NCBI GenBank assembly: GCA_001769385.1 | Contig: MEPB01000068.1 | Span: 63,917 to 127,916 of the forward strand | Direction: 5' to 3' | Origin: Bacteroidetes bacterium RIFCSPLOWO2_12_FULL_35_15 | GTDB taxonomy: Bacteria > Bacteroidota > Bacteroidia > 2-12-FULL-35-15 | Length of the DNA stretch: 64,000 nucleotides | In this document: one piece after another, positions 3,269 through 35,618 of the stretch | Layout: every line of letters begins with the position of its first letter | Position numbering within the stretch: position 1 is the stretch's first letter | Program-made: the position numbers and the translations under genes | Notes under the pieces: generated by a model | Told to the model about the DNA's origin: nothing | Database searches by the model: none | Seen by the model: only the letters and a program-made list of their open reading frames with translations

Positions 3269-3923
3269 CTGTCATTTCGAACGGAATGCAATGAAGAGAG
3301 AAATCTGCTTATCGAGGTGAGATTTCTCCCAGAGTTTATCCTGAGCGGAGTCGAAGGAGTCGAAATGCCATTAATAACTGGCATTTCGATCGGAATGTAA
3401 TGAAGAGAGAAATCTCATTTCGCAAAGAAGAGATTTCTCCTTGGCAGTCGAAATGACATTAGGGGACTGTCATTTCGATCGGAATTTAATGAAGAGAGAA
3501 ATCTCATTTCACGAAGGAGAGATTTCTCCTTGGCAGTCGAAATGACATTAGGGGACTGTCATTTCGAACGGAATGCAATGAAGAGAGAAATCTGCTTATC
3601 GAGGTGAGATTTCTCCCAGAGTTTATCCTGAGCGGAGTCGAAGGTGTCGAAATGCCATTAATAACTGTCATTTCGATCGGAATGCAATGAAGAGAGAAAT
3701 ATCATTTCGCAAAGAAGAGATTTCTCCTTGGCAGTCGAAATGACATTAGGGGACTGTCATTTCGAACGGAATGCAATGAAGAGAAGAAATCTCATTTCGT
3801 GAAGGAGAGATTTCTCCTTGGCAGTCGAAATGACATTAGGGGACTGTCATTTCGAACGGAATGTAATGAAGAGAGAAATCTCATTTCACGAAGAAAATTT
3901 TTCTCCTTGGCAGTCGAAATGAT
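3269..3923 (+). repeat. Tandem array of 7 palindromic units (family A: CTGTCATTTCGAACGGAATGCAATGAAGAGAGAAATCT-N13/15-AGATTTCTCC-x-GTCGAAATGACA)
   Basis: Units start at about 3269, 3378, 3467, 3556, 3665, 3754 and 3844; period about 89 bp, or about 109 bp when an insert is present. Confidence 0.95.
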
Positions 3924-3941
3924 ACACAATTACATTTTTAA

Positions 3942-5708
3942 ATGAAACCACTTTTAGAAACAAAAAAAAAATTATCACTAAAGCTAAAAGCGTTTATAAC
4001 ACTTTTTGTTGTTATTGTTGTTCTTGCATTTGTGTTTACGTTAAAATTTTCCGGTAATTCAAAAAAGGATTTTGCAAACCTACATTATTCAAAAAATGTA
4101 ATAGCTCCTATAAGCTCATCAGAAGGAGGGTTTTACAAAACAGCATTTACAATTAATCTATCTACTATTGATTTAAATACTCAAATTTATTATACCCTTG
4201 ATGGATCAGAACCTACACTGGCATCTACTTTATATTCAAAGCCAATTTTAATTGAAGACAGAACAGAGAATAAAAATTATTTATCAGCTATACCTACTTC
4301 GCCACGCTGGAAACCACCAATTGGTACTATTTTTAAAGGAACAGTTTTACGTGCGATCGCAATTGATGGGGAAAACAAAAAAAGTGCAGAATTGATAAAA
4401 ACATTTTTTGTAAATGAAAAAGGAAACCAACGTTATTCCTTGCCGGTTATCTCTATTACGGTGAATTCAAAAGAATTATTTGGTTATAACAGAGGTATTT
4501 ATGTTCTAGGGAAAAGCTATTCAGATAAAGATAATTACATACGAAAAAATATTCCCTTGGATCTTCCCTGGTGGGAATATCCTTCCAATTACCTGATGCG
4601 TGGTGCAGATGCAGAAAGAGAAGCTCATATAGAGTTTTATGAACCCTCAGGTAAATTGGGCTTTGAATCAACAGTGGGTCTGAGAATACACGGAAACGCT
4701 ACACGTGGGTATCCTCAAAAATCATTACGCGTTTGTTTCCGGGAAAAATACGGACAATCAGAATTGAATTATAATCTGTTCCCTGCAAATCCGGTAAAAA
4801 AATTCAGTTCTTTTATTTTGAGAAATTCAGGTAATGATTGGGACAAAACAATGTTTCGTGATGGATTCATGCAATCGCTGATGAAAAATTCTTCTATCGA
4901 TATACAAGATTATCGTCCTTCTATTGTTTTTATCAATGCCGAATATTGGGGAATACATAATATCAGGGAACGTTTTGATGAGAACTATTTAGCAAATAAA
5001 TACAATTTAAGTCCAGATAGTGTTATTATTCTGGAGATGAGTGGGAAATTGGTCAGGGGACAAAAAGGGGAGGAGCAAAAGTTTACAGAATTATTGAATT
5101 TCGTTTCGAAAAATGATCTTTCCATCCAGAAAAATTATGACTATGTAAGATCAAAAATGGAGATAGAAAGCTTTTCAGATTTTGTGATTGCAAATGTCTA
5201 TTTCTGTAATAGTGATTGGCCAAATAATAATGTACGGTTTTGGAGATATAATTCGGAGTCGGTAGCAGATAGCCTAGTAAAAAAAGAGGGTAAATGGCGA
5301 TGGATGTTGTATGATACAGACTGGGGTTTTGGATATAATGATTTGAGTTCACCAAAATCTAATTTACTCGAAAAAGCAACACGAGTGGGAAGCGTTGGGA
5401 TCTTATTTAGTGAGTTACTAAAAAATAAAGAATTTGTTTCCCAATTTTTAGATCGTTTTCAGCACCATTTAAATACCAGTTTTTATATCCCTTATGTTAA
5501 TCAAAAGATCGATCAAATGAAGTATTCAATTTCTCCTGAAATCCAAGAACATATTGATCGTTGGAGAGGAATTGGTTCCTATGAAAAGTGGCTTTCTAAT
5601 ATTGGTGTTTTAAAGGACTTCGCAGAACAAAGGCCTTCATTTCAGGCAGATCAATTAAATACATTTTTTAATTTAAAAGGGAAGCAACAAATTATCATAA
5701 AAAAGTAG
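3942..5708 (+). CDS. CotH kinase family protein with N-terminal membrane anchor and Fn3-associated/chitobiase-like domain
   Basis: IYYTLDGSEP, GLRIHGNATR, LRNSGND, YWGIHNIRE, NSDWPNNN and WRWMLYDTDWGFG motifs. Confidence 0.88.
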   Translation: MKPLLETKKKLSLKLKAFITLFVVIVVLAFVFTLKFSGNSKKDFANLHYSKNVIAPISSSEGGFYKTAFTINLSTIDLNTQIYYTLDGSEPTLASTLYSKPILIEDRTENKNYLSAIPTSPRWKPPIGTIFKGTVLRAIAIDGENKKSAELIKTFFVNEKGNQRYSLPVISITVNSKELFGYNRGIYVLGKSYSDKDNYIRKNIPLDLPWWEYPSNYLMRGADAEREAHIEFYEPSGKLGFESTVGLRIHGNATRGYPQKSLRVCFREKYGQSELNYNLFPANPVKKFSSFILRNSGNDWDKTMFRDGFMQSLMKNSSIDIQDYRPSIVFINAEYWGIHNIRERFDENYLANKYNLSPDSVIILEMSGKLVRGQKGEEQKFTELLNFVSKNDLSIQKNYDYVRSKMEIESFSDFVIANVYFCNSDWPNNNVRFWRYNSESVADSLVKKEGKWRWMLYDTDWGFGYNDLSSPKSNLLEKATRVGSVGILFSELLKNKEFVSQFLDRFQHHLNTSFYIPYVNQKIDQMKYSISPEIQEHIDRWRGIGSYEKWLSNIGVLKDFAEQRPSFQADQLNTFFNLKGKQQIIIKK

Positions 5709-5755
5709 GGCAAAACTCTATTTTGCCGTATATTTGAAGGTAAATTATTTTTATT

Positions 5756-7096
5756 GTGGTAGCATATTACAAAGCAAACTTTCAACTTTTTTCTATTTTT
5801 TTTATTTGGCTGATTATTGGAAAATATGCTCCGGTAATTTCCTATGCGGTGATCCCTATTACGATGTTTTTGATGTACAAAAAGGGAATGATAGAGGAAT
5901 TATTGATCGGATATTTTTTCATACTTATTCTATCTGATAGTTTAGAGGATTCTTTGTTTTTTGCTAAAAATGTCAAAAATATTTACATCAGTGTTTTGGC
6001 TGTTTTTTTCTTTTTTGACACCAAAAATTTCCAGCCCTTAAATAAGCTGTATAAACTGTATGTTCCTTTCTTTATTTTTGCACTTTTTACCATATCCATT
6101 AGTCTTTTTGAGCCATTTTTCTTTACCGGTTTTCAAAAAACCATTTCTTTTGCCATTTCATTAATGATCATCCCTAATTTTATTACCAGGCTGTATAGAG
6201 AAGGAGGGGGATTGTTTTTAAAACGAATTGTTTTTTTTGCGGTCACAATTTTGATAATCGGTTTTATTCTGAAATATGTCGCTCATGATTTTGCGTATTT
6301 AGAAAATGGACGATACCGTGGATTTTTGGGTAGTCCTAATGGTTTAGGAATATACAGTGTTTTAACGTTTATTATTTTTTTTGTTATCGATTATTTTTTT
6401 CCTTCCTTATTTACTAAACAGGAAAGAATTATTCTGATTGGGGCAATATTACTTTCCATCTTTCTTTCGGGATCCCGTAATAGCGTTTTTGCTATTCTTA
6501 TATTTTATTTTTTTCAACGTTTTTTTAGTGTATCTCCCTTCTTGGGTTTTATTCTATTTCTTTTAACTTTATTCGTTTCGGAACTAATTAGTACAAATCT
6601 CTCTTCTATATTAAATTCGATTGGGCTAGGGGAGTTTTTCAGAACAAAAACCTTGGAAGAAGGTAGCGGAAGATATATTGCATGGAACTTTGCATGGATT
6701 CACATTCAACAGAATTTTTTTATTGGGAAAGGTTTTGCCTACAACGAATTTTATATGCGCCAATATTACGCCTTGTTATCAAAGTTAGGACATCAGGGAG
6801 GGATACATAATTCTTTTTTAACATTTTGGATGGATCAGGGCTTGATAGGCTTATTAATATATTTGAGATCCTATATTTTAATGTTCATTAAATCCGCAAA
6901 ACAAACTAAGTTCGCATATCCGATACTCTTTGCTCTCTCTTTTACGGCAATTTTTGAGTCATGGTTGGTAGCGTCATTGAGTCCGTTTGCATTTCTGGCG
7001 ATTTTTATTTTTACGATCATTACAAGTGATGAAATTGTTCCACAAGAATATATGGTAAGTAAAGAACAAGCTCTAATTAAAGAACCTGTTATATGA
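5756..7096 (+). CDS. O-antigen polymerase/ligase (Wzy/WaaL-like)
   Basis: Multi-TM protein with R..G..G.PNGLG, LSGSRNS, SGR and HNSFL...GLIG motifs; GTG start preceded by TATATTTG (5729-5736). Confidence 0.82.
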   Translation: MVAYYKANFQLFSIFFIWLIIGKYAPVISYAVIPITMFLMYKKGMIEELLIGYFFILILSDSLEDSLFFAKNVKNIYISVLAVFFFFDTKNFQPLNKLYKLYVPFFIFALFTISISLFEPFFFTGFQKTISFAISLMIIPNFITRLYREGGGLFLKRIVFFAVTILIIGFILKYVAHDFAYLENGRYRGFLGSPNGLGIYSVLTFIIFFVIDYFFPSLFTKQERIILIGAILLSIFLSGSRNSVFAILIFYFFQRFFSVSPFLGFILFLLTLFVSELISTNLSSILNSIGLGEFFRTKTLEEGSGRYIAWNFAWIHIQQNFFIGKGFAYNEFYMRQYYALLSKLGHQGGIHNSFLTFWMDQGLIGLLIYLRSYILMFIKSAKQTKFAYPILFALSFTAIFESWLVASLSPFAFLAIFIFTIITSDEIVPQEYMVSKEQALIKEPVI

Positions 7097-9702
7097 AAAT
7101 AAACGATTCTTATAAACATAAGTTTTCCAATAACACATCAAAAAATAGTTTTTTTGGAAAACATGTTTTTACAAAGCGAACTCTCTTTTTGACTATAAGT
7201 AGTGTAATTTTTGTTTTCGGTTACCTTGCATCCAATTTTATTAAAAAAAAGGGATATACCGGTTTATGGGATTTCACAACTACAATTACGTCAAATTATG
7301 TTAAAGGATTAAGAGCCAATCCTGAAAATATTTCGATAGAGATAAAAGAAAAAGATTTTAAAAAGTTAGAAAAAAATAGAAAACAAGCCCTTGAACGCGG
7401 TGTGATCATCAATGATCTGGATGGCGATTATGTATCAGCAACGATTGAATACAATGGAAAAAAGATAGATGTAAAATTGCGGTTGAAGGGTCATATGACG
7501 GATCATTTGCAAAAAGATAAATGGTCCTTTCGGGTAAAAGTAAAAGACAAGGATTCATTTATAGGGATGAAACGATTTAGTTTGCAACATCCGGGTACGC
7601 GGGGATATATTTACGAATGGATCTATCATCAACTGATGAAACAGGAAGGAATTATCGCCCTTCGTTATAAATTTATGAATGTAACTGTCAACGGACGGGA
7701 TTGGGGAATCTATTGTGTGGAAGAAAATTTCGATAAAGAATTGATAGAAAATAACAATCGAAAAGCAGGACCAATCATTCGTTTTAATCCGGATCTGTAT
7801 TGGGTGGATAGATTAAATGAACTGGAAGGAGAAAAGCCGGTTGCTGAGTATGCTTCCTATTATTCTGCAAATGTAGAAGCTTATCGTGAGGATAAGGTAT
7901 TGGAAGATTCTACTCAAAAACAGTATTATTTGAAAGCAATTGCATTGATGGAAGGTTTTCGGAATCGAAAATTAAAGGCGGATGCTGTTTTTGATATTGA
8001 AAAATTGGCAAAATTTCATGCGATTATCGATCTGGTAGGTGGTCAGCACAGTATAGATTGGAGCGACATAAAGTATTATTATAATCCGGTTTCTGCAAAA
8101 TTAGAGCCGGTTGCTTATGAAAGTTTTACTGTATTTCCTTTTCGGGATATTTCCGGAAATTACAAATTTGTTATACCCGACAGTAATGAATACTATGAAG
8201 ATCTGCATACCGCTCTGTTTAGTGATCCTGAATTCTTCAAGGCTTATATTGTAAATTTAGAAAGGATATCGGAATCCACTTATCTCGATAACTATTTTGA
8301 TGATGTTAAAAAAGAATTGAATGAAAATCTGGCAATTCTTTACAAAGAATTTCCCTATAAAAAATTTGATAAACAAGGTTATTATCAAAATCAAGTAATG
8401 ATTAAAAAAATACTTAACGTACCTAAATCAATACATGCTTACTTCAGTAATTTTTCAAATGGAAGGATTACATTGCAAATAGGAGCAATAGAATCTTTGC
8501 CTGTTGAAATAAAATCTATTTTAATTGAGGGGAAATATTCATTTCCTTCTTCTCCAATAGTTTTAGCTGCAAAGCAACAAAATAGATATGTTAATTATAA
8601 GGAATATTCTTTCACATTGCCTGCTGGGATGGTTTGGAAGGATTCTTTACTTCAATACATCAAAATTAATTATTCTATTTTAGGATATTCAGTTCAACAG
8701 GAATCAAAGGTATTTCCTTTCCCTCATACCGATACCGAATTTATTTCAACAGATCTGAAAAACAAACAAAGTACTATAAATGAATTTTCATTTTTAATAG
8801 TAGATGAAAATACAAAATCAATATTTTTAAAATCCGGAAAACTGACCATTAGTAGCGATCTGATTATTCCTAAAGGATATAAAGTTTTTGCAAATTCAGG
8901 TGTTTCGATTGACGTTAAAAATTACGCAAAAATAATTTCATATTCAGCATTGTTTTTAACCGGAACAGAAGATGAACCATTTGTGATAGAATCAAGTGAT
9001 TCAACATTTCAGGGAATCGAAATTATAGATGCTAGTAAATCGAAGTTTAGCTATGTTACTTTTAAGAACCTTCCAAAGATACACGATGAACAATGGGCAA
9101 GAAGTGGTGCTCTGACATTTTATGAATCACCTGTTGAATTTAATAATTGTAGTTTTTATAATAGTAAGGCCGAAGATGCTGTAAATTTAATTCGCTCAAC
9201 ATTTTCATTTAAAAAATGTTTGTTTCACAGCATGCATAATGATGCTATTGATATTGACTTTTCGGAAGGTGTAGTTTCGAATTGTGTGTTTGAAAACTGC
9301 GATGAAAACTCCTTGGATATCACAATGGGAAAAGTAAACGTTAATTCGATATACATAAATGGAGCTGGAAACAAGGGATTAAATATAAAAGCCGGAACAC
9401 AGTTTAATGGTAATGATGTACGAATAAAAAACGCTAATATTGCTATTTCTGCTGAAGATCGGTCTTCTGTTGATTTGACTGATGTTAGTATTTCAGATTC
9501 TAAAATAGGCCTGGTTGCATATAAAAATAAACCGGGAGCCGGTCATCCAACAATAAGTGTGTCAGGATTGGTTTTGTCAAATGTAAAAAAGAACTACTTA
9601 AAAGAAAAAGAATCCACTATTAGTGCTAATGGGATCACCATTGGTGATGAAATGAATGACGTAGAAACACTACTTAAAGGTGATAAAAAGAAACGTAAAT
9701 AA
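7093..9702 (+). CDS. CotH kinase family protein with C-terminal right-handed beta-helix
   Basis: KLRLKGH..DH, WSFRVK, WGIYCVEE, KYYYNP..KLEPVAYE; C-terminal parallel beta-helix repeats (EDAVNL, NDAIDIDFS). Confidence 0.8.
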   Translation: MKINDSYKHKFSNNTSKNSFFGKHVFTKRTLFLTISSVIFVFGYLASNFIKKKGYTGLWDFTTTITSNYVKGLRANPENISIEIKEKDFKKLEKNRKQALERGVIINDLDGDYVSATIEYNGKKIDVKLRLKGHMTDHLQKDKWSFRVKVKDKDSFIGMKRFSLQHPGTRGYIYEWIYHQLMKQEGIIALRYKFMNVTVNGRDWGIYCVEENFDKELIENNNRKAGPIIRFNPDLYWVDRLNELEGEKPVAEYASYYSANVEAYREDKVLEDSTQKQYYLKAIALMEGFRNRKLKADAVFDIEKLAKFHAIIDLVGGQHSIDWSDIKYYYNPVSAKLEPVAYESFTVFPFRDISGNYKFVIPDSNEYYEDLHTALFSDPEFFKAYIVNLERISESTYLDNYFDDVKKELNENLAILYKEFPYKKFDKQGYYQNQVMIKKILNVPKSIHAYFSNFSNGRITLQIGAIESLPVEIKSILIEGKYSFPSSPIVLAAKQQNRYVNYKEYSFTLPAGMVWKDSLLQYIKINYSILGYSVQQESKVFPFPHTDTEFISTDLKNKQSTINEFSFLIVDENTKSIFLKSGKLTISSDLIIPKGYKVFANSGVSIDVKNYAKIISYSALFLTGTEDEPFVIESSDSTFQGIEIIDASKSKFSYVTFKNLPKIHDEQWARSGALTFYESPVEFNNCSFYNSKAEDAVNLIRSTFSFKKCLFHSMHNDAIDIDFSEGVVSNCVFENCDENSLDITMGKVNVNSIYINGAGNKGLNIKAGTQFNGNDVRIKNANIAISAEDRSSVDLTDVSISDSKIGLVAYKNKPGAGHPTISVSGLVLSNVKKNYLKEKESTISANGITIGDEMNDVETLLKGDKKKRK

Positions 9703-10738
9703 AATAATTAATTTATCTTTTTGTGGTTTGATAAGCATTCAGTTATTATCAGCACAAATTATTTCTCCATTTAATAAAGTAATGGTGGCCGACACTTCCG
9801 GTAATTATTCCTTTATTGTGAGTGGCCATTTTCACGGAGCTTCCACGAATCTTTCCACCTATCCTGCTTCCACGTTATTAGCGAATATAGATAACTTGAA
9901 CTCTTTGAAGCCAAATTTTTTAATGAGTTTGGGGGATATGTTCCTGGATGTGAATGAAACCTATTTAGAACATTATAAAACATCGTTATTTGAAAAGTTA
10001 AAAATGCCATTGTTGAATGCTGTTGGTAACCATGATCTGTCAAATGGTAATATGTATGAAAAAGTATTTGGCCGGACATATTTTTCATTTACTGCTCAAT
10101 CAGAATTATTTATTGTTCTGAATACGGAAATAAATGATGGAAGCATTAAAGGAGAGCAGCTCGAATTTTTAAAAGTTTGCTTAAATAAAGCAAAGTCAGC
10201 TGATATAAAAAATATTTTTATTTTTTCTCATCGACCTATTTGGGCGGAGGGAAATCCTAAATATGATATGTTATTCGAAGGTAACACGCATAGTCAGTTT
10301 GGTTCACCCAACTTCGAAAAAGAAATTCGTCCTCTACTCGAAAATATGACCTTACCAATTTTTTGGATTTCCGGATCGTTGGCAGGTGGACCGGCTTCAT
10401 TTTTTTATGATAAAGATGAAAACGACTCTATAACATTTATGCAAACCGCAATTCGTGATTTGCCAAGGGATGCCGTCTTACAAATAAATGTAAAAGATGG
10501 AAATGTTACGTTCAAAGGAGTTTCTTTAACAGGTCAGACACTCGAACCAATTGAAAACTACACGATTGATTATTGGAAAAAAACGATTCCGCCCGAAGCC
10601 TCTTTTAATTACAGACTAATTCCTTTATTATTTATTCAAATGTTGAAGCATTACTTTTTTTGGATTGGTTTTGTATCTTCATTAATTTTCTTTTTTGTTT
10701 TAAAATGGATCTTTAACAGATGGAAAAAAAGAAAATAG
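9680..10738 (+). CDS. Calcineurin-like metallophosphoesterase with C-terminal TM helix
   Basis: GHFHG, LGD, VGNHD and FSHRP motifs; signal-like N-terminus and hydrophobic C-terminus. Confidence 0.75.
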   Translation: MIKRNVNKIINLSFCGLISIQLLSAQIISPFNKVMVADTSGNYSFIVSGHFHGASTNLSTYPASTLLANIDNLNSLKPNFLMSLGDMFLDVNETYLEHYKTSLFEKLKMPLLNAVGNHDLSNGNMYEKVFGRTYFSFTAQSELFIVLNTEINDGSIKGEQLEFLKVCLNKAKSADIKNIFIFSHRPIWAEGNPKYDMLFEGNTHSQFGSPNFEKEIRPLLENMTLPIFWISGSLAGGPASFFYDKDENDSITFMQTAIRDLPRDAVLQINVKDGNVTFKGVSLTGQTLEPIENYTIDYWKKTIPPEASFNYRLIPLLFIQMLKHYFFWIGFVSSLIFFFVLKWIFNRWKKRK

Positions 10739-11766
10739 TTTTTCTTTATACCGAAATTGCTGATTATTTTTTAGCAGGATGTAAAGCATTAATCGAAAAA
10801 AATGCAGAAGTGCATATAATACGCTATCCTGTGAATAAAGAAGCGCCATTTCAATTCGATATTCCTGAAAAAATAAAAATTTATGAACGGAATAATTACG
10901 ATAAAAAAACTTTACTTTCTCTCGTTGAATCAATCAACCCGCAAATAATTGTATGCAGTGGTTGGGTTGACAAAAGCTATTTAACTATATGTAAAGTTTT
11001 TAAGAAAAAAGCGATAACTGTTTTAACCCTAGATAATCATTGGAGAGGAGATATTAAACAACGTATCGCCTCCTTCATAAGCCCTTTTTATTTACTAAAA
11101 CGATTTTCGAATTGTTGGGTGCCCGGTTCTTTGCAATTTGAATATGCACTAAAATTAGGTTTTAATAAAAAATCAATTTTATCAGGGTTTTATTCTTGCG
11201 ATTTTGATATGTTTTATAAACAATACCTGGCAAATAAAGATGAAAAACAAAAATATTTTCCAAAACGTTTTATTTTTGTGGGTCGTTATTACGAATTTAA
11301 AGGCATCAAAGATCTTTGGCAGGCATTTATTGAGTTGCAGACAAAGGAACCAACAGAATGGGAGTTATGGTGCTTAGGAACAGGTGATATTGAACCCATT
11401 AAGCATGATAAGATAAAGCATTTCGGATTTGTTCAACCGAAAGATCTACCTGAATTTATAAAGGAAACAGGTGTTTTTGTCTTGCCTAGTCATTTTGAGC
11501 CCTGGGGCGTTGTGGTGCATGAATTTGCAGCTGCAGGTTTTCCTATCATTTGCAGTGATGAAGTTGGTGCAAGGGGAATATTTGTTGAAGAAAATGTGAA
11601 TGGCTATATTTACAAAGCCGGTGATGTTGGAGAATTAAAAAAGCAATTGAAAAAGATGATGAGTTTAGGAGATCAAAAATTAATTGAGATGGGGAAAAAA
11701 AGTATAGAGAAAGCAAAGCAAATTACTCCGGATAGTTGGGCAGATACGTTGATGAAATTGTTGTAA
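10720..11766 (+). CDS. Glycosyltransferase family 4
   Basis: FVGRYYEFKG and LPSHFEPWGVVVHEFAAAG motifs. Confidence 0.9.
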   Translation: MEKKKIVFLYTEIADYFLAGCKALIEKNAEVHIIRYPVNKEAPFQFDIPEKIKIYERNNYDKKTLLSLVESINPQIIVCSGWVDKSYLTICKVFKKKAITVLTLDNHWRGDIKQRIASFISPFYLLKRFSNCWVPGSLQFEYALKLGFNKKSILSGFYSCDFDMFYKQYLANKDEKQKYFPKRFIFVGRYYEFKGIKDLWQAFIELQTKEPTEWELWCLGTGDIEPIKHDKIKHFGFVQPKDLPEFIKETGVFVLPSHFEPWGVVVHEFAAAGFPIICSDEVGARGIFVEENVNGYIYKAGDVGELKKQLKKMMSLGDQKLIEMGKKSIEKAKQITPDSWADTLMKLL

Positions 11767-11792
11767 TTTGTTTTGTCAAAAGACAAATATGA

Positions 11793-12062
11793 CTGTCATT
11801 TCGAACGAAATGAAATGAAGAGAGAAATCTGTTTATCGAGGTGAGATTTCTCCCGGTGGTCGAAATGACATTAGGGGTTGTCATTTCGAAAGGAATGAAA
11901 TGAAGAGCGAAATCTGTTTATCGAGATGAGATTTCTCCCGGAGTTTACCTGAGCGGAGTCGAAGGGGTCAAATGAGACGTACGAAGTCATTTCGACCGAA
12001 ATGAAATGTAAAGAGAAATCTGTTTTGGAGAACGAAATGCAATGAAGAGAGAAATCTCATTT
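11793..12062 (+). repeat. Family A palindromic repeat array upstream of the GIY-YIG gene (2 full units plus 2 left halves)
   Basis: Units at about 11793 and 11879; half units at about 11986 and 12030; same consensus as 3269-3923. Confidence 0.92.
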
Positions 12063-12088
12063 TAGAGGAATCATAATTTAAAATTAAA

Positions 12089-12409
12089 ATGAAACACCAT
12101 AACTATTTTGTATATATTTTAACAAATAAAAACAAAACTGTTTTATACATTGGTGTTACGAATAACCTTGAAAGAAGAATATACGAGCATGAAAGTAATA
12201 GTGGAAATAATTATAAATTTACCTCAAAATACAATTGCATAAATCTTATTTATCATGAAAGATTTGGTAATATAAATCAAGCAATTGAAAGGGAGACAGA
12301 ATTAAAAAAGTGGAGAAGAGAAAAGAAAAATGATTTGATAAATGCAGTTAATCCAAATTGGGATTTTCTAAATGAGGAAATTAAAGAAAGATTTTTTGAA
12401 AAGGTTTGA
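12089..12409 (+). CDS. Small stand-alone GIY-YIG nuclease family protein
   Basis: YFVYILTNKNKTVLYIGVTNNLERRIYEH, FTSKY, AIERE..LKKWRREKK..LI...NP.W motifs. Confidence 0.92.
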   Translation: MKHHNYFVYILTNKNKTVLYIGVTNNLERRIYEHESNSGNNYKFTSKYNCINLIYHERFGNINQAIERETELKKWRREKKNDLINAVNPNWDFLNEEIKERFFEKV

Positions 12410-12413
12410 AAAT

Positions 12414-12722
12414 AAAATTTCTTTCTGATCGAAATGGTTAATTTTACTGTCATTTCGAACGGAACAAAGTGAAGAGAGAAATCTCATTTCACGAAGATGA
12501 GATTTCTCCCTCTGGTCGAAATGACATAAAGTACTGTCATTTCGAACGGAATGAAATGAAGAGAGAAATCTGTTTATCGAGGTGAGATTTCTCCCGGAGT
12601 TTACCTGAGCGGAGTCGAAGGGGTCGAAATGACATTAAAAACTGTCATTTCGAACGGAACAGAGTGAAGAGAGAAATCTCATTTAACGAAGAAAAGATTT
12701 CTTCCTTTGCTCGAAATGAACA
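12414..12722 (+). repeat. Family A palindromic repeat array downstream of the GIY-YIG gene (degenerate right half plus 3 full units)
   Basis: Right-half remnant AAATTTCTTTCTGATCGAAATGG at about 12415-12437; full units at about 12447, 12534 and 12642. Confidence 0.92.
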
Positions 12723-12744
12723 GTTCTACTTGAAACAATAAATT

Positions 12745-14640
12745 ATGTGTGGCATAAACGGAATAGTAGGTTTTAATGATCTAATCCTTGCAAAACAAAA
12801 AATAATTGCAATGAATAACCGTATGCGGCATCGTGGACCGGATGATGAGGGTGTATTTGTGGCTGATAAAATTGCATTAGGTCATAGACGTCTTTCGATC
12901 ATTGATCTTTCTGCTGCAGGACACCAACCCATGCAATCGCATGATGGAAGATATCAAATAGTTTATAATGGAGAGATCTATAATTATAAAGAACTGAAAT
13001 TTGAATTACAACGTGTTGTTTCCGGTTCAAACCAGCAAACTTATTTTTTTCAAACTAATACGGATACTGAAGTTATCATTGCTGCTTATGCTCGCTGGGG
13101 TTCCGACTGTGTCAATCATTTCAATGGTATGTTTGCTTTTGCCATCTGGGATGATCAGACCAAAGAATTATTTATTGCACGCGATAGATTAGGGATAAAG
13201 CCATTGTATTATTGTTTTACGGATGGTGTATTTGCTTTTTCTTCTGAGCTGCGTTCGTTGTTAGCATGTGAACTAATTCCTAAAAAAATAGATGAAGATA
13301 GTTTAATTGATTATCTCCGCTATCAAACTGTTCATGCTCCCAATACTATTGTAAAAGGCATAAAAATGCTTATGCCCGGACATTTCATTGAAATGAAAAA
13401 TGAGCAATTAACAATAAAAAATTATTGGTCCCTAACAAAAAACATTTCCAACGAATCGAATGATAAGAGTTATAATGATGTTTGTAAGGATGTGAATCAG
13501 CTATTAACAAAATCTGTTGAAAGACGTTTGATCGCTGATGTTCCATTTGGCGCATTTCTTTCAGGAGGAATAGATTCCAGTGCCATAGTAGGATTGATGA
13601 GCAAAGTCTCGACTGAAAAAGTGAAGACCTTTTCAGTAACATTTGATGAAAGGGAATTTTCCGAAGCAAAATATGCACAACTGATCGCTAAAAAATTTAA
13701 TACAGATCATCATGAAATAAAATTGAAACCCTCTGATTTTATTGAGCAATTACCAAATGCCTTAAAAGCAATGGATCACCCAAGTGGTGATGGACCCAAT
13801 ACATTTATTGTTTCAAAAGCAACCAAAGAAGCAGGGATCACCATGGCATTATCAGGGTTAGGTGGCGATGAATTATTTGCAGGGTATGATGTTTTTAAAA
13901 AATCATTGGAATTAAATAAAAAAGCCTGGTTAAATCTGATTCCACAATTTATGCGTGGAGCAGGAGCTTCGATTTTACTTAAGGCAAAGCCAGGCGTTTC
14001 ATCAGAAAAAATTGCAGAATTATTAAAACAAAATAAAATAAATTTCAATTCTTTTTATCCTATAACCCGTCAGGTACTTATGGATAAACAAATTCTCGAA
14101 ATAGTAAATGGTGAAACCTTAGTAGCCAATAAAGTGTCTGAAATAATTTCGGAAATACAACCAATATCCAACATCCAACAACTAACATCCGTCAGTATTG
14201 CAGAAATATCTACCTATATGCAAAATGTGCTTTTGCGCGATGCTGATCAAATGAGTATGGCGCATGCATTAGAAGTTCGTGTCCCCTTTTTGGATCACAC
14301 ATTGGTTGAATATGTTTTAGGTGTTCCCGATAACTATAAAAGTACTGTTTCCCCTAAAAAATTATTAGTAGATGCATTAGGTGAGCTCTTACCTTCAGAA
14401 ATTGTTAACCGACCAAAAATGGGTTTTACTTTTCCATGGAAAAATTGGATGAAAAACGAATTGAAAATCGTTTGCGAACAAAAAATAGTATCATTATCCA
14501 AACGCAAATTATTTAATGAACAAGGTGTTACGAACTTATGGAACTCTTTTCTGAAAGATGATCCACGAATTACCTGGTCGCGAATCTGGTATTTAGTTGT
14601 ATTGGAAAATTGGATGCAGGAAAATGGAATTGAAAATTAA
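12745..14640 (+). CDS. asnB: Asparagine synthase (glutamine-hydrolysing)-type amidotransferase of a polysaccharide locus
   Basis: N-terminal MCGI, HRGPD, LGHRRLSIID, FLSGGIDSS, SGLGGDELFAGY and EVRVPFLDH motifs. Confidence 0.93.
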   Translation: MCGINGIVGFNDLILAKQKIIAMNNRMRHRGPDDEGVFVADKIALGHRRLSIIDLSAAGHQPMQSHDGRYQIVYNGEIYNYKELKFELQRVVSGSNQQTYFFQTNTDTEVIIAAYARWGSDCVNHFNGMFAFAIWDDQTKELFIARDRLGIKPLYYCFTDGVFAFSSELRSLLACELIPKKIDEDSLIDYLRYQTVHAPNTIVKGIKMLMPGHFIEMKNEQLTIKNYWSLTKNISNESNDKSYNDVCKDVNQLLTKSVERRLIADVPFGAFLSGGIDSSAIVGLMSKVSTEKVKTFSVTFDEREFSEAKYAQLIAKKFNTDHHEIKLKPSDFIEQLPNALKAMDHPSGDGPNTFIVSKATKEAGITMALSGLGGDELFAGYDVFKKSLELNKKAWLNLIPQFMRGAGASILLKAKPGVSSEKIAELLKQNKINFNSFYPITRQVLMDKQILEIVNGETLVANKVSEIISEIQPISNIQQLTSVSIAEISTYMQNVLLRDADQMSMAHALEVRVPFLDHTLVEYVLGVPDNYKSTVSPKKLLVDALGELLPSEIVNRPKMGFTFPWKNWMKNELKIVCEQKIVSLSKRKLFNEQGVTNLWNSFLKDDPRITWSRIWYLVVLENWMQENGIEN

Positions 14641-17210: not shown

Positions 17211-17616
17211 AATTTCGAACACAATGAAATGTAGAAAGAAATCTGTTTATTGAACGCAATTGTCATTTCGAACGGAACGAAGAGAAGAGAGAAATCTGTT
17301 TATCGAGGTGAGATTCTTCATTTCATTCAGAATGACATTTAGGAAAGTCATTTGGAACGCAATGAAATGTAGAAAGAAATCTGCTTATCAAACACAACTG
17401 TCATTTCGAACGGAATGGAATGAAGAGAGAAATCTGCTTATCGGAGGAGAGATTCTTCCTTTCATTCAGAATAACATTTATGAACTGTCATTTCGAACGG
17501 AATGGAATGAAGAGAGAAATCTGCTTATCGAGCTGAGATTTCTTCATTTCATTAAGAATGACATTTAGGAAAGTCATTTCGAAAGGAATGGAATGAAGAG
17601 AGAAATCGGCTTATCG
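17211..17616 (+). repeat. Family A array with variant right halves and interspersed half units
   Basis: Left halves at about 17211, 17261, 17347, 17398, 17485 and 17573; three are followed by an AGATTCTTCATTTCATTCAGAATGACA-type right arm. Confidence 0.9.
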
Positions 17617-17626
17617 AAAAAAATAA

Positions 17627-20118: not shown

Positions 20119-20192
20119 CTGTTCATTTCGAACGGAATGAAATGAGGTGAGAAATCTGTTTATTGAGGATAAGATCCTGCTGGTCGAAATAA
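20119..20192 (+). repeat. Single degenerate family A unit
   Basis: CTGTTCATTTCGAACGGAATGAAATGAGGTGAGAAATCTGTTTATTGAGG...GGTCGAAAT. Confidence 0.8.
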
Positions 20193-21124: not shown

Positions 21125-22651
21125 TCATTTTAAAATTTGAAGTTTTAGAAATTGGTCTTCATTTATTTTTAGAATGTAGAAACCTTCTGAGAACTCGGAA
21201 GTATTTATTTTTGCTGTTTTGTTTGTTGAAATGATTGTTTTTGTTTCCTGGCCGAAGGCATTAAAAATCGTAATCCTGTTTTCTTTTTCCTTTCCATTAA
21301 ACTCAATTGTAACCAGGTTGCTTGCCGGATTTGGATATACATGTACAGCGTTTGAAAAAGGATGGTTCTCATCTATCGCAACAAAACAATTATTCAGTGC
21401 CAACTCAGTAATAAGTGAATTTCTGCGAGCTGTTATAAATGATTTTAAACCTAAAATTGTTCCGCCTCCCGGGGGTGGGCCAGTTGTTGTAATGTCTGTT
21501 GTGAGATTATCTTCAAATTGCTGATTGGAATAAAACTTTTTTGTATCAGCATATACTGCGATGCGTATGGCATTGGCAAGTGAATCAATTTTCCCATCCA
21601 ATGCAGCATTACTGAAGTCATAATTTAACCATTGGCAAATAGTATTTATAAATTCGGTTTTATAATTATTGTTTTGCAGCATTTTTTGCATTAAAGGTCT
21701 GCTGCCCGATGGAATTGAAACAAAAAACATACTTAGGTTTTTTAGTTGGGTACTTGTCATTCCCATATTAAAATTTCCGAATGATTCATTCACATCCCAT
21801 GCTACCCATTCAAATTTATTACTTAAGGTATCGTGGTAAATATAATAATTATGACCGCTGCCGATGTATGAATCAAGATTTGCAAAAATATTTATAGCCG
21901 CCCATTGTTTAACAAAACTACCGGTATTGAATATTGTTTCGAGTGAATCGGAAAAATAGGTTCCGGTATTATTGATTTTATTAATAAAAGAAACCAGATC
22001 TGACCAATCATTTATGGTTTCATTCGTATGCAATTCGTATTTAGTGTAATAGGAAGAGGGAGTGCTATTGATCCATTTTAAATCACCGGATGGATCGCCT
22101 TTAAACATATTCCCCTGTTTATTACCAAAGTGTTTATTAAGAAATTGTTTGGTATCAATTTCTTCAATAAACGTATATAATCCCCAATAGCTTCCATTTA
22201 TGTAAACCTTTGTAAAAGCACATCTTGGAGCTCCTAAACCCTGTTCATTGTAAAAGTCACATGCCAGTTTTTCACGCAAAAAAGAAGGATCTTTAAACCC
22301 ATTGTTTAGATTGAATTTTTTTAACCCATCAACGTTTTGTCCGGCAACATATTCATTCAGACTTATTTTAAATGATTTTTTATCGCTTGGATTATTATAC
22401 GATGAATTGCCTTTGAATTTTATTCCAACATTCGAAATAACTGTTCCATCAATTTGTATATTTCCCGTTAAATATTGATCAAGCGGCATATATAATGTAA
22501 GAGAATCCCAATAGTTGGTTTGGCTGAAGGTCATGTATATTTCATGAACCTGAGGGGCTCCAAAAATAATATTGCCTTCAGTTTGTGCTAAAATAGGATT
22601 AGAAAGGATACTGAATAAAGCAAAAAAAGAGAGTCGCTTTTTTAGTTTCAT
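21125..22651 (-). CDS. CotH kinase family protein with T9SS C-terminal sorting domain
   Basis: VGIKFKGNSS, KKSFKI, DPSFLRE, YWGLY, NLDSY..SGHNYYIY, WDVNESFG; CTD VYPNPAS...GFYILKI. Confidence 0.88.
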   Translation of the reverse strand: MKLKKRLSFFALFSILSNPILAQTEGNIIFGAPQVHEIYMTFSQTNYWDSLTLYMPLDQYLTGNIQIDGTVISNVGIKFKGNSSYNNPSDKKSFKISLNEYVAGQNVDGLKKFNLNNGFKDPSFLREKLACDFYNEQGLGAPRCAFTKVYINGSYWGLYTFIEEIDTKQFLNKHFGNKQGNMFKGDPSGDLKWINSTPSSYYTKYELHTNETINDWSDLVSFINKINNTGTYFSDSLETIFNTGSFVKQWAAINIFANLDSYIGSGHNYYIYHDTLSNKFEWVAWDVNESFGNFNMGMTSTQLKNLSMFFVSIPSGSRPLMQKMLQNNNYKTEFINTICQWLNYDFSNAALDGKIDSLANAIRIAVYADTKKFYSNQQFEDNLTTDITTTGPPPGGGTILGLKSFITARRNSLITELALNNCFVAIDENHPFSNAVHVYPNPASNLVTIEFNGKEKENRITIFNAFGQETKTIISTNKTAKINTSEFSEGFYILKINEDQFLKLQILK

Positions 22652-35442: not shown

Positions 35443-35618
35443 TCATTTCGACTCCTTCAACTCCGCTCAGGATAAACTCATGAAGAAATCTGTTCTTTGC
35501 AAAATGAGATTTCTCTCTTCATTTCATTGCGTTCGAAATGACAGTCCCTAAATGTCATTTCGACCAGAGGGAGAAATCTCTCCTTCGATTAACAGATTTC
35601 TCTCTTCATTTCATTCGA
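35443..35618 (-). repeat. Two family A units in reverse orientation
   Basis: AGATTTCTCTCTTCATTTCATTGCGTTCGAAATGACAG is the reverse complement of the unit left half; the first unit carries the CTCCGCTCAGGATAAACT insert. Confidence 0.9.

Follow-up and report, generated by a model that had tools for sequence, protein, structure and literature searches.

The closest described systems are the Ssn nucleases and their NTS/SRM hairpins, published by Chenal et al. 2025 (Nat Commun 16:2388; PMC11893778). SsnA of Neisseria meningitidis is a single-domain GIY-YIG protein of 94 aa that is assigned to CDD class cd10448. The NTS repeat (CGTCATTCCCGCGMAVGCGGGAATCYRG) is bound solely in single-stranded form, cleavage takes place a few nucleotides upstream of it, and mutation of two tyrosines (Y6 and Y17) and a glutamate abolished cutting. 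In the case of double-stranded DNA, the enzymes assayed did not cut. In Neisseria, the system reduces transformation by NTS-bearing DNA. The criteria of the paper were E<1e-10 to CAX49033.1 and at least one SRM within 500 bp on each side; SRM motifs were found near 71% of homologues and on both sides in 42%. Gene regulation by the hairpins was the first idea considered by the authors, and in the Discussion the NTS-ssnA-NTS arrangement was likened, as a hypothesis, to insertion sequences (IS) and to IS200 and RAYT-REP, the repetitive extragenic palindromes (REP) with their associated tyrosine transposases (RAYT) (PMC11893778). In this work, we analyzed a 64,000-nt stretch (the window) of Bacteroidetes bacterium RIFCSPLOWO2_12_FULL_35_15, in which a 106-aa GIY-YIG nuclease gene lies among palindromic repeats. 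The source genome is 5.39 Mb in 110 contigs, and the window-bearing contig is 165 kb.

A sequence-only reading had described the gene as the centre of a selfish system for which no mechanistic description was known. This statement is outdated because Chenal et al. 2025 gives a biochemical mechanism of the nuclease (PMC11893778). The reading had also proposed a nickase or endonuclease and an assay of nicking on hairpin or cruciform repeat DNA; a nickase acting on cruciforms is disfavoured by the uncut double-stranded DNA in the same work. A literature search on GIY-YIG nucleases with palindromic or hairpin repeats gave nothing relevant beyond that paper.

A single-domain nuclease between inverted hairpin sites

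The gene and the sites next to it are as follows.

12089..12409, + strand: single-domain GIY-YIG nuclease gene, Ssn-like, 106 aa (open reading frame, ORF; Pfam PF01541)
11986..12027, + strand: lone left half-site, GTCATTTCGA intact (sequence, profile match)
12030..12067, + strand: gene-proximal left half-site, 5' end word lost, GTTTTGGAG instead of GTCATTTCG (sequence, profile)
12415..12437, - strand: gene-proximal right half-site AAATTTCTTTCTGATCGAAATGG, degenerate, beginning 5 nt past the stop codon (sequence; inverted pair I1)

A palindromic unit of ~78 nt, of which both halves are degenerate, encloses the gene within a tandem array. The left half (...AGAGAGAAATCTCATTT) terminates at 12062, 26 nt upstream of the ATG, and the right half terminates in ATGG, not ATGAC. 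The ORF, its Pfam match, its neighbours and the repeat strings agreed with the earlier description of a 106-aa GIY-YIG gene in the loop of a split palindrome within a glycan operon, and so did the proposed positions of the two halves (left half ending at about 12062, right half at about 12415-12437). The right half had been called degenerate, which was correct. Direct reading of 11793-12722 showed that the GTCAT/ATGAC end word was gone from both halves adjoining the gene, so that the left half had decayed as well.

The protein matched Pfam GIY-YIG (PF01541) over residues 5-80 with E=2.4e-17, and the Pfam scan gave no second domain in the 106 aa, save an overlapping T5orf172 match. No NCBIfam model scored above its cut-off; TIGR01453 (intron-endonuclease) reached 21.4 bits against a cut-off of 56. 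Residues Y9, Y20, G22, H34 and E69 were invariant in 59/59 aligned homologues, and R30 was kept in 98%. The catalytic-type residues are intact in the window protein and include the presumed counterparts of the two tyrosines and the glutamate essential for SsnA cutting. The spacing between the tyrosines is 11, the same as that of Y6/Y17 mutated in Chenal et al. 2025 (PMC11893778).

The unit, which we call family A, has the form GTCATTTCGA...GAGAAATCT, a 13-nt loop, and AGATTTCTC...TCGAAATGAC. It consists of two hairpin sites in inverted orientation, each with the form GTC-ATTTC-loop-GAAAT-C. By structure, complete inverted hairpin sites of the NTS type (GTCAT, stem, loop, stem, ATC) flank the window gene to the left and to the right, no more than 300 nt away. 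When folded as single-stranded DNA, the unit at 11794..11870 gave -13.3 kcal/mol (z -3.1) and the unit at 12448..12526 gave -20.8 kcal/mol (z -6.2), with 0/200 shuffles as good. Units were counted with a profile built from genome copies and run on the window and the genome. It found 23 units in the window, which bore out the claim of more than 20 units in 64 kb, and 148 merged matches in 90 clusters genome-wide, 39 of them on the 165-kb contig. The end word GTCATTTCGA was counted 25 times in the window, where 0.17 occurrences were expected, and 0/100 shuffles attained 25. A structural search gave 488 hairpins in the source genome and 256 in the reversed control; the excess fell on five stems, with 157 hairpins for ATTTC, 42 for ATTGC, 27 for ATTCC, 25 for ATTCT and 21 for ATGCT. 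An Rfam identity of the repeats was also considered for ten loci and was rejected, with two chance-level matches only (DapZ, E=0.44; MIR172, E=0.064). A further candidate, the 'Pedo-repair' motif, was unsupported by the same scan.

A connection to the published system was provided by Sphingopyxis witflariensis. The genomes tried as a bridge to Neisseria SsnA came from an exact NTS scan of genome contigs (at least 129 stretches in many phyla). S. witflariensis gave nine homologue matches, the best being the gene L207 (44% identity, E=1.5e-21), and five of its genes were 37-44% identical to the window protein. L207 has convergent hairpins fitting the published SRM pattern on both sides, in the same layout as the window gene, and an SRM of this pattern was present on some flank in 3/7 gene copies read. 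Other copies lie between GTCATTGCGAGG... or GTCACCCTGAACTTGTTTCAGGG... hairpins, which are variants of Bacteroidota loci. The published pattern does detect Sphingopyxis sites.

Because the catalytic residues are kept, the protein is a single GIY-YIG domain, the hairpins carry the GTCAT...ATC signature and the Sphingopyxis genes are homologous, the window locus is probably an Ssn/SRM module of a Bacteroidota genome, with a link to SsnA that is indirect, via Sphingopyxis. By homology, the nuclease would probably bind the hairpin sites whenever the DNA is unwound (in replication, repair or incoming DNA), and it would nick at the outer edge of each site. The nuclease could be the agent of the gains and losses of units and cassettes described below, or it could instead restrict the recombination of incoming DNA near surface-polysaccharide genes, by analogy with Neisseria.

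Association of nuclease genes with hairpins in paralogues, relatives and the phylum

The source genome has five paralogues, and the profile search placed family-A units beside the window copy only. Read by eye, the paralogues on contigs C58, C24 and C17 are each flanked by an inverted hairpin variant of their own:

C58 paralogue: GTCATTCCGACC... upstream; ...GGTCGAGATGAC downstream
C24 paralogue: GTCATTGCGAGC... upstream; ...CTCGCAATGAC downstream
C17 paralogue, a pseudogene: GTCATTTCGAGC... upstream; ...GCTCGAAATGAC downstream

At least three intact nuclease/hairpin pairs thus co-occur in the source genome.

The homologue set comprised 83 matches at E<=0.001 in 31 genomes (19 of the genus and 12 from other families of the class). 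The expectation that homologues are preferentially repeat-flanked was supported by several counts. GTCA was present 30-80 nt upstream of the start in 48/83 loci, compared with 6/83 for the control word TGAC, its reverse complement. A perfect GTC-stem-loop-stem-C (stem of at least 5, loop of 3-30) within 110 nt upstream was found in 24/83 loci and in 0/83 reversed flanks. The complementarity score between the two flanks was at least 16 in 28/81 loci, compared with 3/78 when the downstream flank was displaced by 450 nt. The median gap from upstream hairpin to start codon was ~16 nt, and at many loci the stop codon lay in or directly ahead of the right-hand hairpin. Seven stems were seen (ATTGC, ATTTC, ATCCC, ATGCT, ATCCT, ATTCC and ATTCT). 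Each keeps its complement, which amounts to compensatory change. Weak matches (E>1e-7) were mostly without hairpins.

The phylum-wide sample had a homologue at E<=1e-10 in 100/201 genomes. Among 31 genes in 29 new loci, a perfect hairpin was present on at least one side in 20 (7 upstream, 17 downstream, 4 both), with 1 and 2 in the reversed controls. Co-variation of repeats with protein phylogeny, as proposed earlier, was also seen: the hairpin class changed 8 times on the tree compared with 20-29 times in 500 label shuffles (60 proteins, 45 labelled rows), a contrast that is inflated by shared descent and overstates the effect because kin rows share labels. The association between gene and hairpin is not chance. 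It is extremely improbable that gene and hairpins merely share, by chance, an intergenic hot spot in a variable glycan locus. Glycan loci are variable and the profile search placed only 1/5 paralogues beside family-A units, which would suit such an explanation, but it is contradicted by the controls (GTCA word, reversed-flank hairpin, displaced-flank complementarity), by the own variants of the other paralogues, and by the orthologues in five other genomes, all within family-A repeats in different places.

Two further observations were made on the homologues. Distant GIY-YIG homologues (E>1e-6) at loci L063, L067, L069 and L070 (genomes G001, G026, G028 and G003) lie directly 3' of a tRNA-3'-end-like sequence (GGTTCGAnnCC), and no GTCAT-type hairpin was found at these four loci. 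In genome G188 (C31:267285-274109), three homologues lie within 7 kb, each with one or two in-frame TAA inside the match, and a single in-frame TAA was seen in homologue matches of several other phylum genomes. These could be pseudogenes, or alignments overrunning the stop into the hairpin.

Gain and loss of the cassette and of the unit

The two neighbours of the nuclease gene are on the same strand as the gene itself.

10720..11766, + strand: GT4 glycosyltransferase gene, left neighbour (ORF; Pfam Glycos_transf_1, E=2.9e-22)
12745..14640, + strand: asparagine synthase (asnB-like) gene, right neighbour (ORF and Pfam)

We compared 61 genus genomes by DNA search; the tallies take in one unpublished genome (G054), and no specific claim rests on it. 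Empty GT4-asnB junctions, suggested earlier as something to look for in relatives, were seen in nine, where the gap was 12-92 nt with no unit and no GIY-YIG gene. No conserved target was found at these nine junctions. In at least 12 further genus genomes, GT4 and asnB were 1.4-7 kb apart. Genome G056 has the insertion: its copy, cut by the contig end, is 91% identical over residues 64-106, with one unit before asnB. A second G056 contig has the order GT4, array, DegT gene, array, full copy (86% identical) and more units.

Orthologues (E<=1e-38) were present in 6/61 genus genomes, in five or six different neighbourhoods, and all were flanked by family-A units or halves. Their neighbours were as follows.

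G001: two CoA-transferase genes
G067: GT2 and STELLO-like genes
G065: unknown ORFs
G052: UDP-GlcNAc 2-epimerase and DUF7033
G056: DegT

These results showed that the cassette is an insertion into the glycan operon, patchy and with differing neighbourhoods in relatives. For another paralogue class, the site and the adjoining genes are constant across three species (L009, L016 and L025). The count of GTCATTTCGA, a word that also belongs to another hairpin class, had no clear link with orthologue presence in the 61 genomes: carriers had 24-256 copies, and some non-carriers had 134-150.

The unit itself was found to be a module. Eight aligned solo units have longer flanks in common, which define an element of ~158 bp resembling a miniature inverted-repeat transposable element (MITE), with terminal inverted repeats of 16-17 nt (GAGCCTGTTTAAATTT...AAATTTAAACAGGCTC) and the family-A unit exactly central. 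Copies in different states were found on source-genome contigs.

C62:21859-22016; C19:177018-177175; C49:161238-161395: MITE with one central unit
C19:203093-203178; C37:209685-209772: MITE without unit, 86-88 bp (...TTATAT CC GAATGG...)
C94:21365-21863: MITE-family copy

Further states were GTC joined to an AATGACA remnant, a half unit, three units and five units. The 75-nt unit was thus gained or lost as a discrete block with the ends GTCAT and ATGAC. By analogy, these ends are close to where the published enzymes would cut each strand. None of 21 solo units showed a target duplication, and direct repeats in arrays were merely spacers. A second hairpin class (GTCA[CG]TTCGAG...) occurs as an inverted pair in longer MITE-like elements (205-213 bp) whose terminal repeats are similar (C26:75431-75643, C58:10716-10926, C69:92117-92321), and this class flanks more distant GIY-YIG paralogues.

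The other units of the array and the gene-less arrays of the window are listed below; palindromic units are given without strand.

11794..11870: complete palindromic unit (profile match, 79 bits)
11879..11985: long unit with nested ~23-nt insert AGTTTACCTGAGCGGAGTCGAAGG in the right half, right end decayed (sequence; profile match 11879-11942; direct repeat D2 common to 12475-12628)
12448..12526: complete palindromic unit (profile match, 77 bits)
12535..12634: long unit with nested insert AGTTTACCTGAGCGGAGTCGAAGG (sequence, profile, direct repeat)
12643..12719: unit with decayed right end, the final one ahead of asnB (sequence, profile)
3270..3923: gene-less array of 7 units, flanked by VTC-domain and CotH genes (profile, end-word count)
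17212..17617: gene-less array of 6 full or half units past the GT2 gene ending the glycan operon (profile)
20123..20192: single unit (profile)
35479..35616: two units past a BON-domain gene (profile)

The last four confirmed the gene-less copies noted earlier. In the long units, the nested insert AGTTTACCTGAGCGGAGTCGAAGG (11939-11965 and 12599-12625) lies in the right-hand hairpin's loop and has a core similar to the second hairpin class; such nesting was also seen in relatives (L004, L013). Annotation of the window ORFs placed the nuclease gene in a surface-glycan locus that encodes GT4, GT2, acetyltransferase, Wzy-like and CotH proteins. The glycan genes and repeat arrays are interspersed with three genes for CotH-kinase-like proteins (window 3942-9702 and 21128-22651), of which one includes a sorting domain for type IX secretion.

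The source genome was present in 11 DNA sequencing runs across 8 studies, with none of RNA listed. In four metagenome runs, summed contig depth over the units (11719-11900 and 12447-12719) was 10- to 100-fold that of unique flanks. Contigs of these runs terminate at the arrays, so that the units are abundant in those communities and break assemblies. Contig joints in the four runs (for example 11836 to 12448, with other letters between) were considered as excision; this was rejected because the joints fall in repeats.

Weighing of explanations and comparison with known systems

Several results weighed against the assignment to Ssn/SRM. The published SRM pattern gave 0 sites in the source genome, compared with 12 in the reversed sequence and 2-10 in five shuffles, and the window gene was not SRM-flanked by this pattern (both sides, 500 bp). 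The N. lactamica and N. mucosa genomes gave weak matches only (E 2.4e-4 to 1e-3); the N. mucosa match looks YhbQ-like (UPF0213-like), with no published-pattern hairpins nearby. The nearest solved structures were UPF0213 proteins, and these matches were weak as well (PDB 1ywl, E=1e-6; 1zg2, E=1.5e-5). The downstream TGAC count was non-discriminating (36/81 compared with 29/81 for the control word), and the tree-label test carries the inflation described above. Five Sphingopyxis paralogues group by host (support 98) despite three hairpin classes, so that across phyla hairpin class does not go with protein clade. In the case of folding, half-sites were weak (-4.5 kcal/mol, z -1.8; -2.6 kcal/mol, z +0.3), and the whole unit folds into one long hairpin that would compete with the half-site hairpins. 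The folds of the two decayed halves adjoining the gene were no more stable than those of shuffles (z 0.18 for 12030..12067). Since these adjoining sites lack the end words, the window's copy of the gene may no longer be acted upon.

As regards the published pattern, we recognised no Bacteroidota among the genus names of its 29 seed genomes. In ten Bacteroidota-named entries of Supplementary Data 4, SRM was 0.9-1.9x the shuffled mean in nine and 4.3x in one, with no clear enrichment; a cd10448 homologue is given there for six of the ten (PMC11893778).

The cassette could be an autonomous transposon-like element, in which the GIY-YIG enzyme excises and inserts both the cassette and gene-less non-autonomous units, as RAYT does for REPINs. 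We regarded this as possible, if rather unlikely. The convergent hairpin sites at both ends resemble IS ends, and cuts 5' of each site, as made by the published enzymes, would hit the two outer edges of the unit. The modular presence or absence of units with GTCAT/ATGAC ends in MITE copies, the nesting of one hairpin within another, the patchy orthologues in differing neighbourhoods and the uninterrupted GT4-asnB in nine relatives are all consistent with it, and the same idea stands in the Discussion of Chenal et al. 2025 (PMC11893778). However, the published enzymes cleave only. Neither target duplication at the 21 solo units nor a conserved target at the empty junctions was found. Many solo units are embedded in a MITE that has terminal inverted repeats of its own and is a possible carrier, and unequal exchange can enlarge arrays. 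One paralogue class is fixed between the same neighbours (L009, L016, L025), and the sites adjoining the window gene are decayed. GIY-YIG nucleases are not known to join strands. The analogy to a selfish REP/RAYT-like system drawn in the sequence-only reading was supported in its layout, co-variation and patchiness, whereas the maintenance, spreading or transposition of repeats by the nuclease stays hypothetical.

A broader proposal, which we offer tentatively and consider unlikely, is that hairpin pairs and hairpin-gene-hairpin cassettes form a two-tier mobile system run by a hydrolytic GIY-YIG nuclease with no transposase. Nicks on opposite strands at the outer edges would release or copy the module, and host replication or repair would insert it where DNA is palindromic or single-stranded. 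One Bacteroidota genome would then harbour several orthogonal nuclease/hairpin pairs in competition with one another, and these would shape recombination of glycan loci. This would explain the units at the exact MITE centre, the hairpin within a hairpin loop and the gene in the 'loop' of a unit.

An improbable explanation is that the flanking hairpins are cis-acting signals only (operator, transcript end or stabiliser), the genome-wide copies being unrelated to the protein. The tight, short distance from hairpin to start codon and the frequent overlap of the downstream hairpin with the stop codon would suit such a role, which was also the first considered by Chenal et al. (PMC11893778). However, the region 11600-12900 was without terminator-like sites and had promoter-like sites at chance level. 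Identical hairpins occur in hundreds of gene-less copies, published homologues cut beside such hairpins, and the stem variants co-vary with the protein.

It is highly improbable that a Y1 (HUH) transposase of the RAYT/IS200 type drives family A, with the GIY-YIG gene as a passenger in a permissive array. The source genome does have 11 Pfam Y1_Tnp matches, five of them of ~150 aa. However, none was less than 4.5 kb from a family-A unit, six were on unit-free contigs, and the GIY-YIG link recurs in the 31 related genomes and the phylum-wide sample. As a separate observation, a Y1 (IS200-like) match at C102:35358-35702 lies ~0.9 kb from a GIY-YIG domain (C102:36597-36815) in a 456-aa open frame.

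The pairing of nuclease and hairpin repeat is already in print as the Ssn family, of which the window locus, under the Ssn/SRM assignment, is a further example. Beyond the publication, we found Bacteroidota hairpins that evade the published pattern, several nuclease/hairpin pairs in one genome, and comparative evidence of gain and loss of cassette and unit. The main worth is in annotation: small 'GIY-YIG family' genes and assembly-breaking Bacteroidota arrays become readable as Ssn nuclease/hairpin modules. Because the published pattern misses its hairpins entirely, the spread of the system in Bacteroidota is likely under-counted. The three intact pairs in one genome are natural material for studies of specificity, which have a practical side in tools for cleaving single-stranded DNA. 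Whether and how the hairpins move can be approached concretely through the MITE copies, which have zero, one, three or five units.

Compared with known systems, small GIY-YIG proteins of the UPF0213/YhbQ type share the size and fold of the window protein, but their match to it is weak, and the UPF0213-like gene of N. mucosa is without hairpins of the published pattern. GIY-YIG homing endonucleases (I-TevI and the T4 Seg proteins) have the same catalytic domain and are free-standing selfish genes between host genes. They have an additional domain for DNA binding and cleave double-stranded DNA, whereas the window protein is the catalytic domain alone. RAYT with REP/REPIN and IS200/IS605 are alike in that a small nuclease gene is bracketed by hairpins, which also occur as gene-less inverted doublets and are recognised in single-stranded DNA. 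Their enzymes are HUH tyrosine nucleases with a covalent intermediate, whereas the window enzyme is a hydrolytic GIY-YIG. The likeness to Ssn/SRM comprises a stand-alone GIY-YIG protein of ~100 aa, a gene between inverted hairpins starting with GTCAT and ending with ATC, many gene-less hairpin copies clustered near surface-structure genes, and several nuclease/hairpin specificities. In contrast to the published Ssn/SRM loci, the hairpins here have 5-bp A+T-rich stems and 11-21-nt loops outside the published pattern and are arranged in ~78-nt inverted pairs and tandem arrays, and the window genome combines at least three intact nuclease/hairpin pairs.

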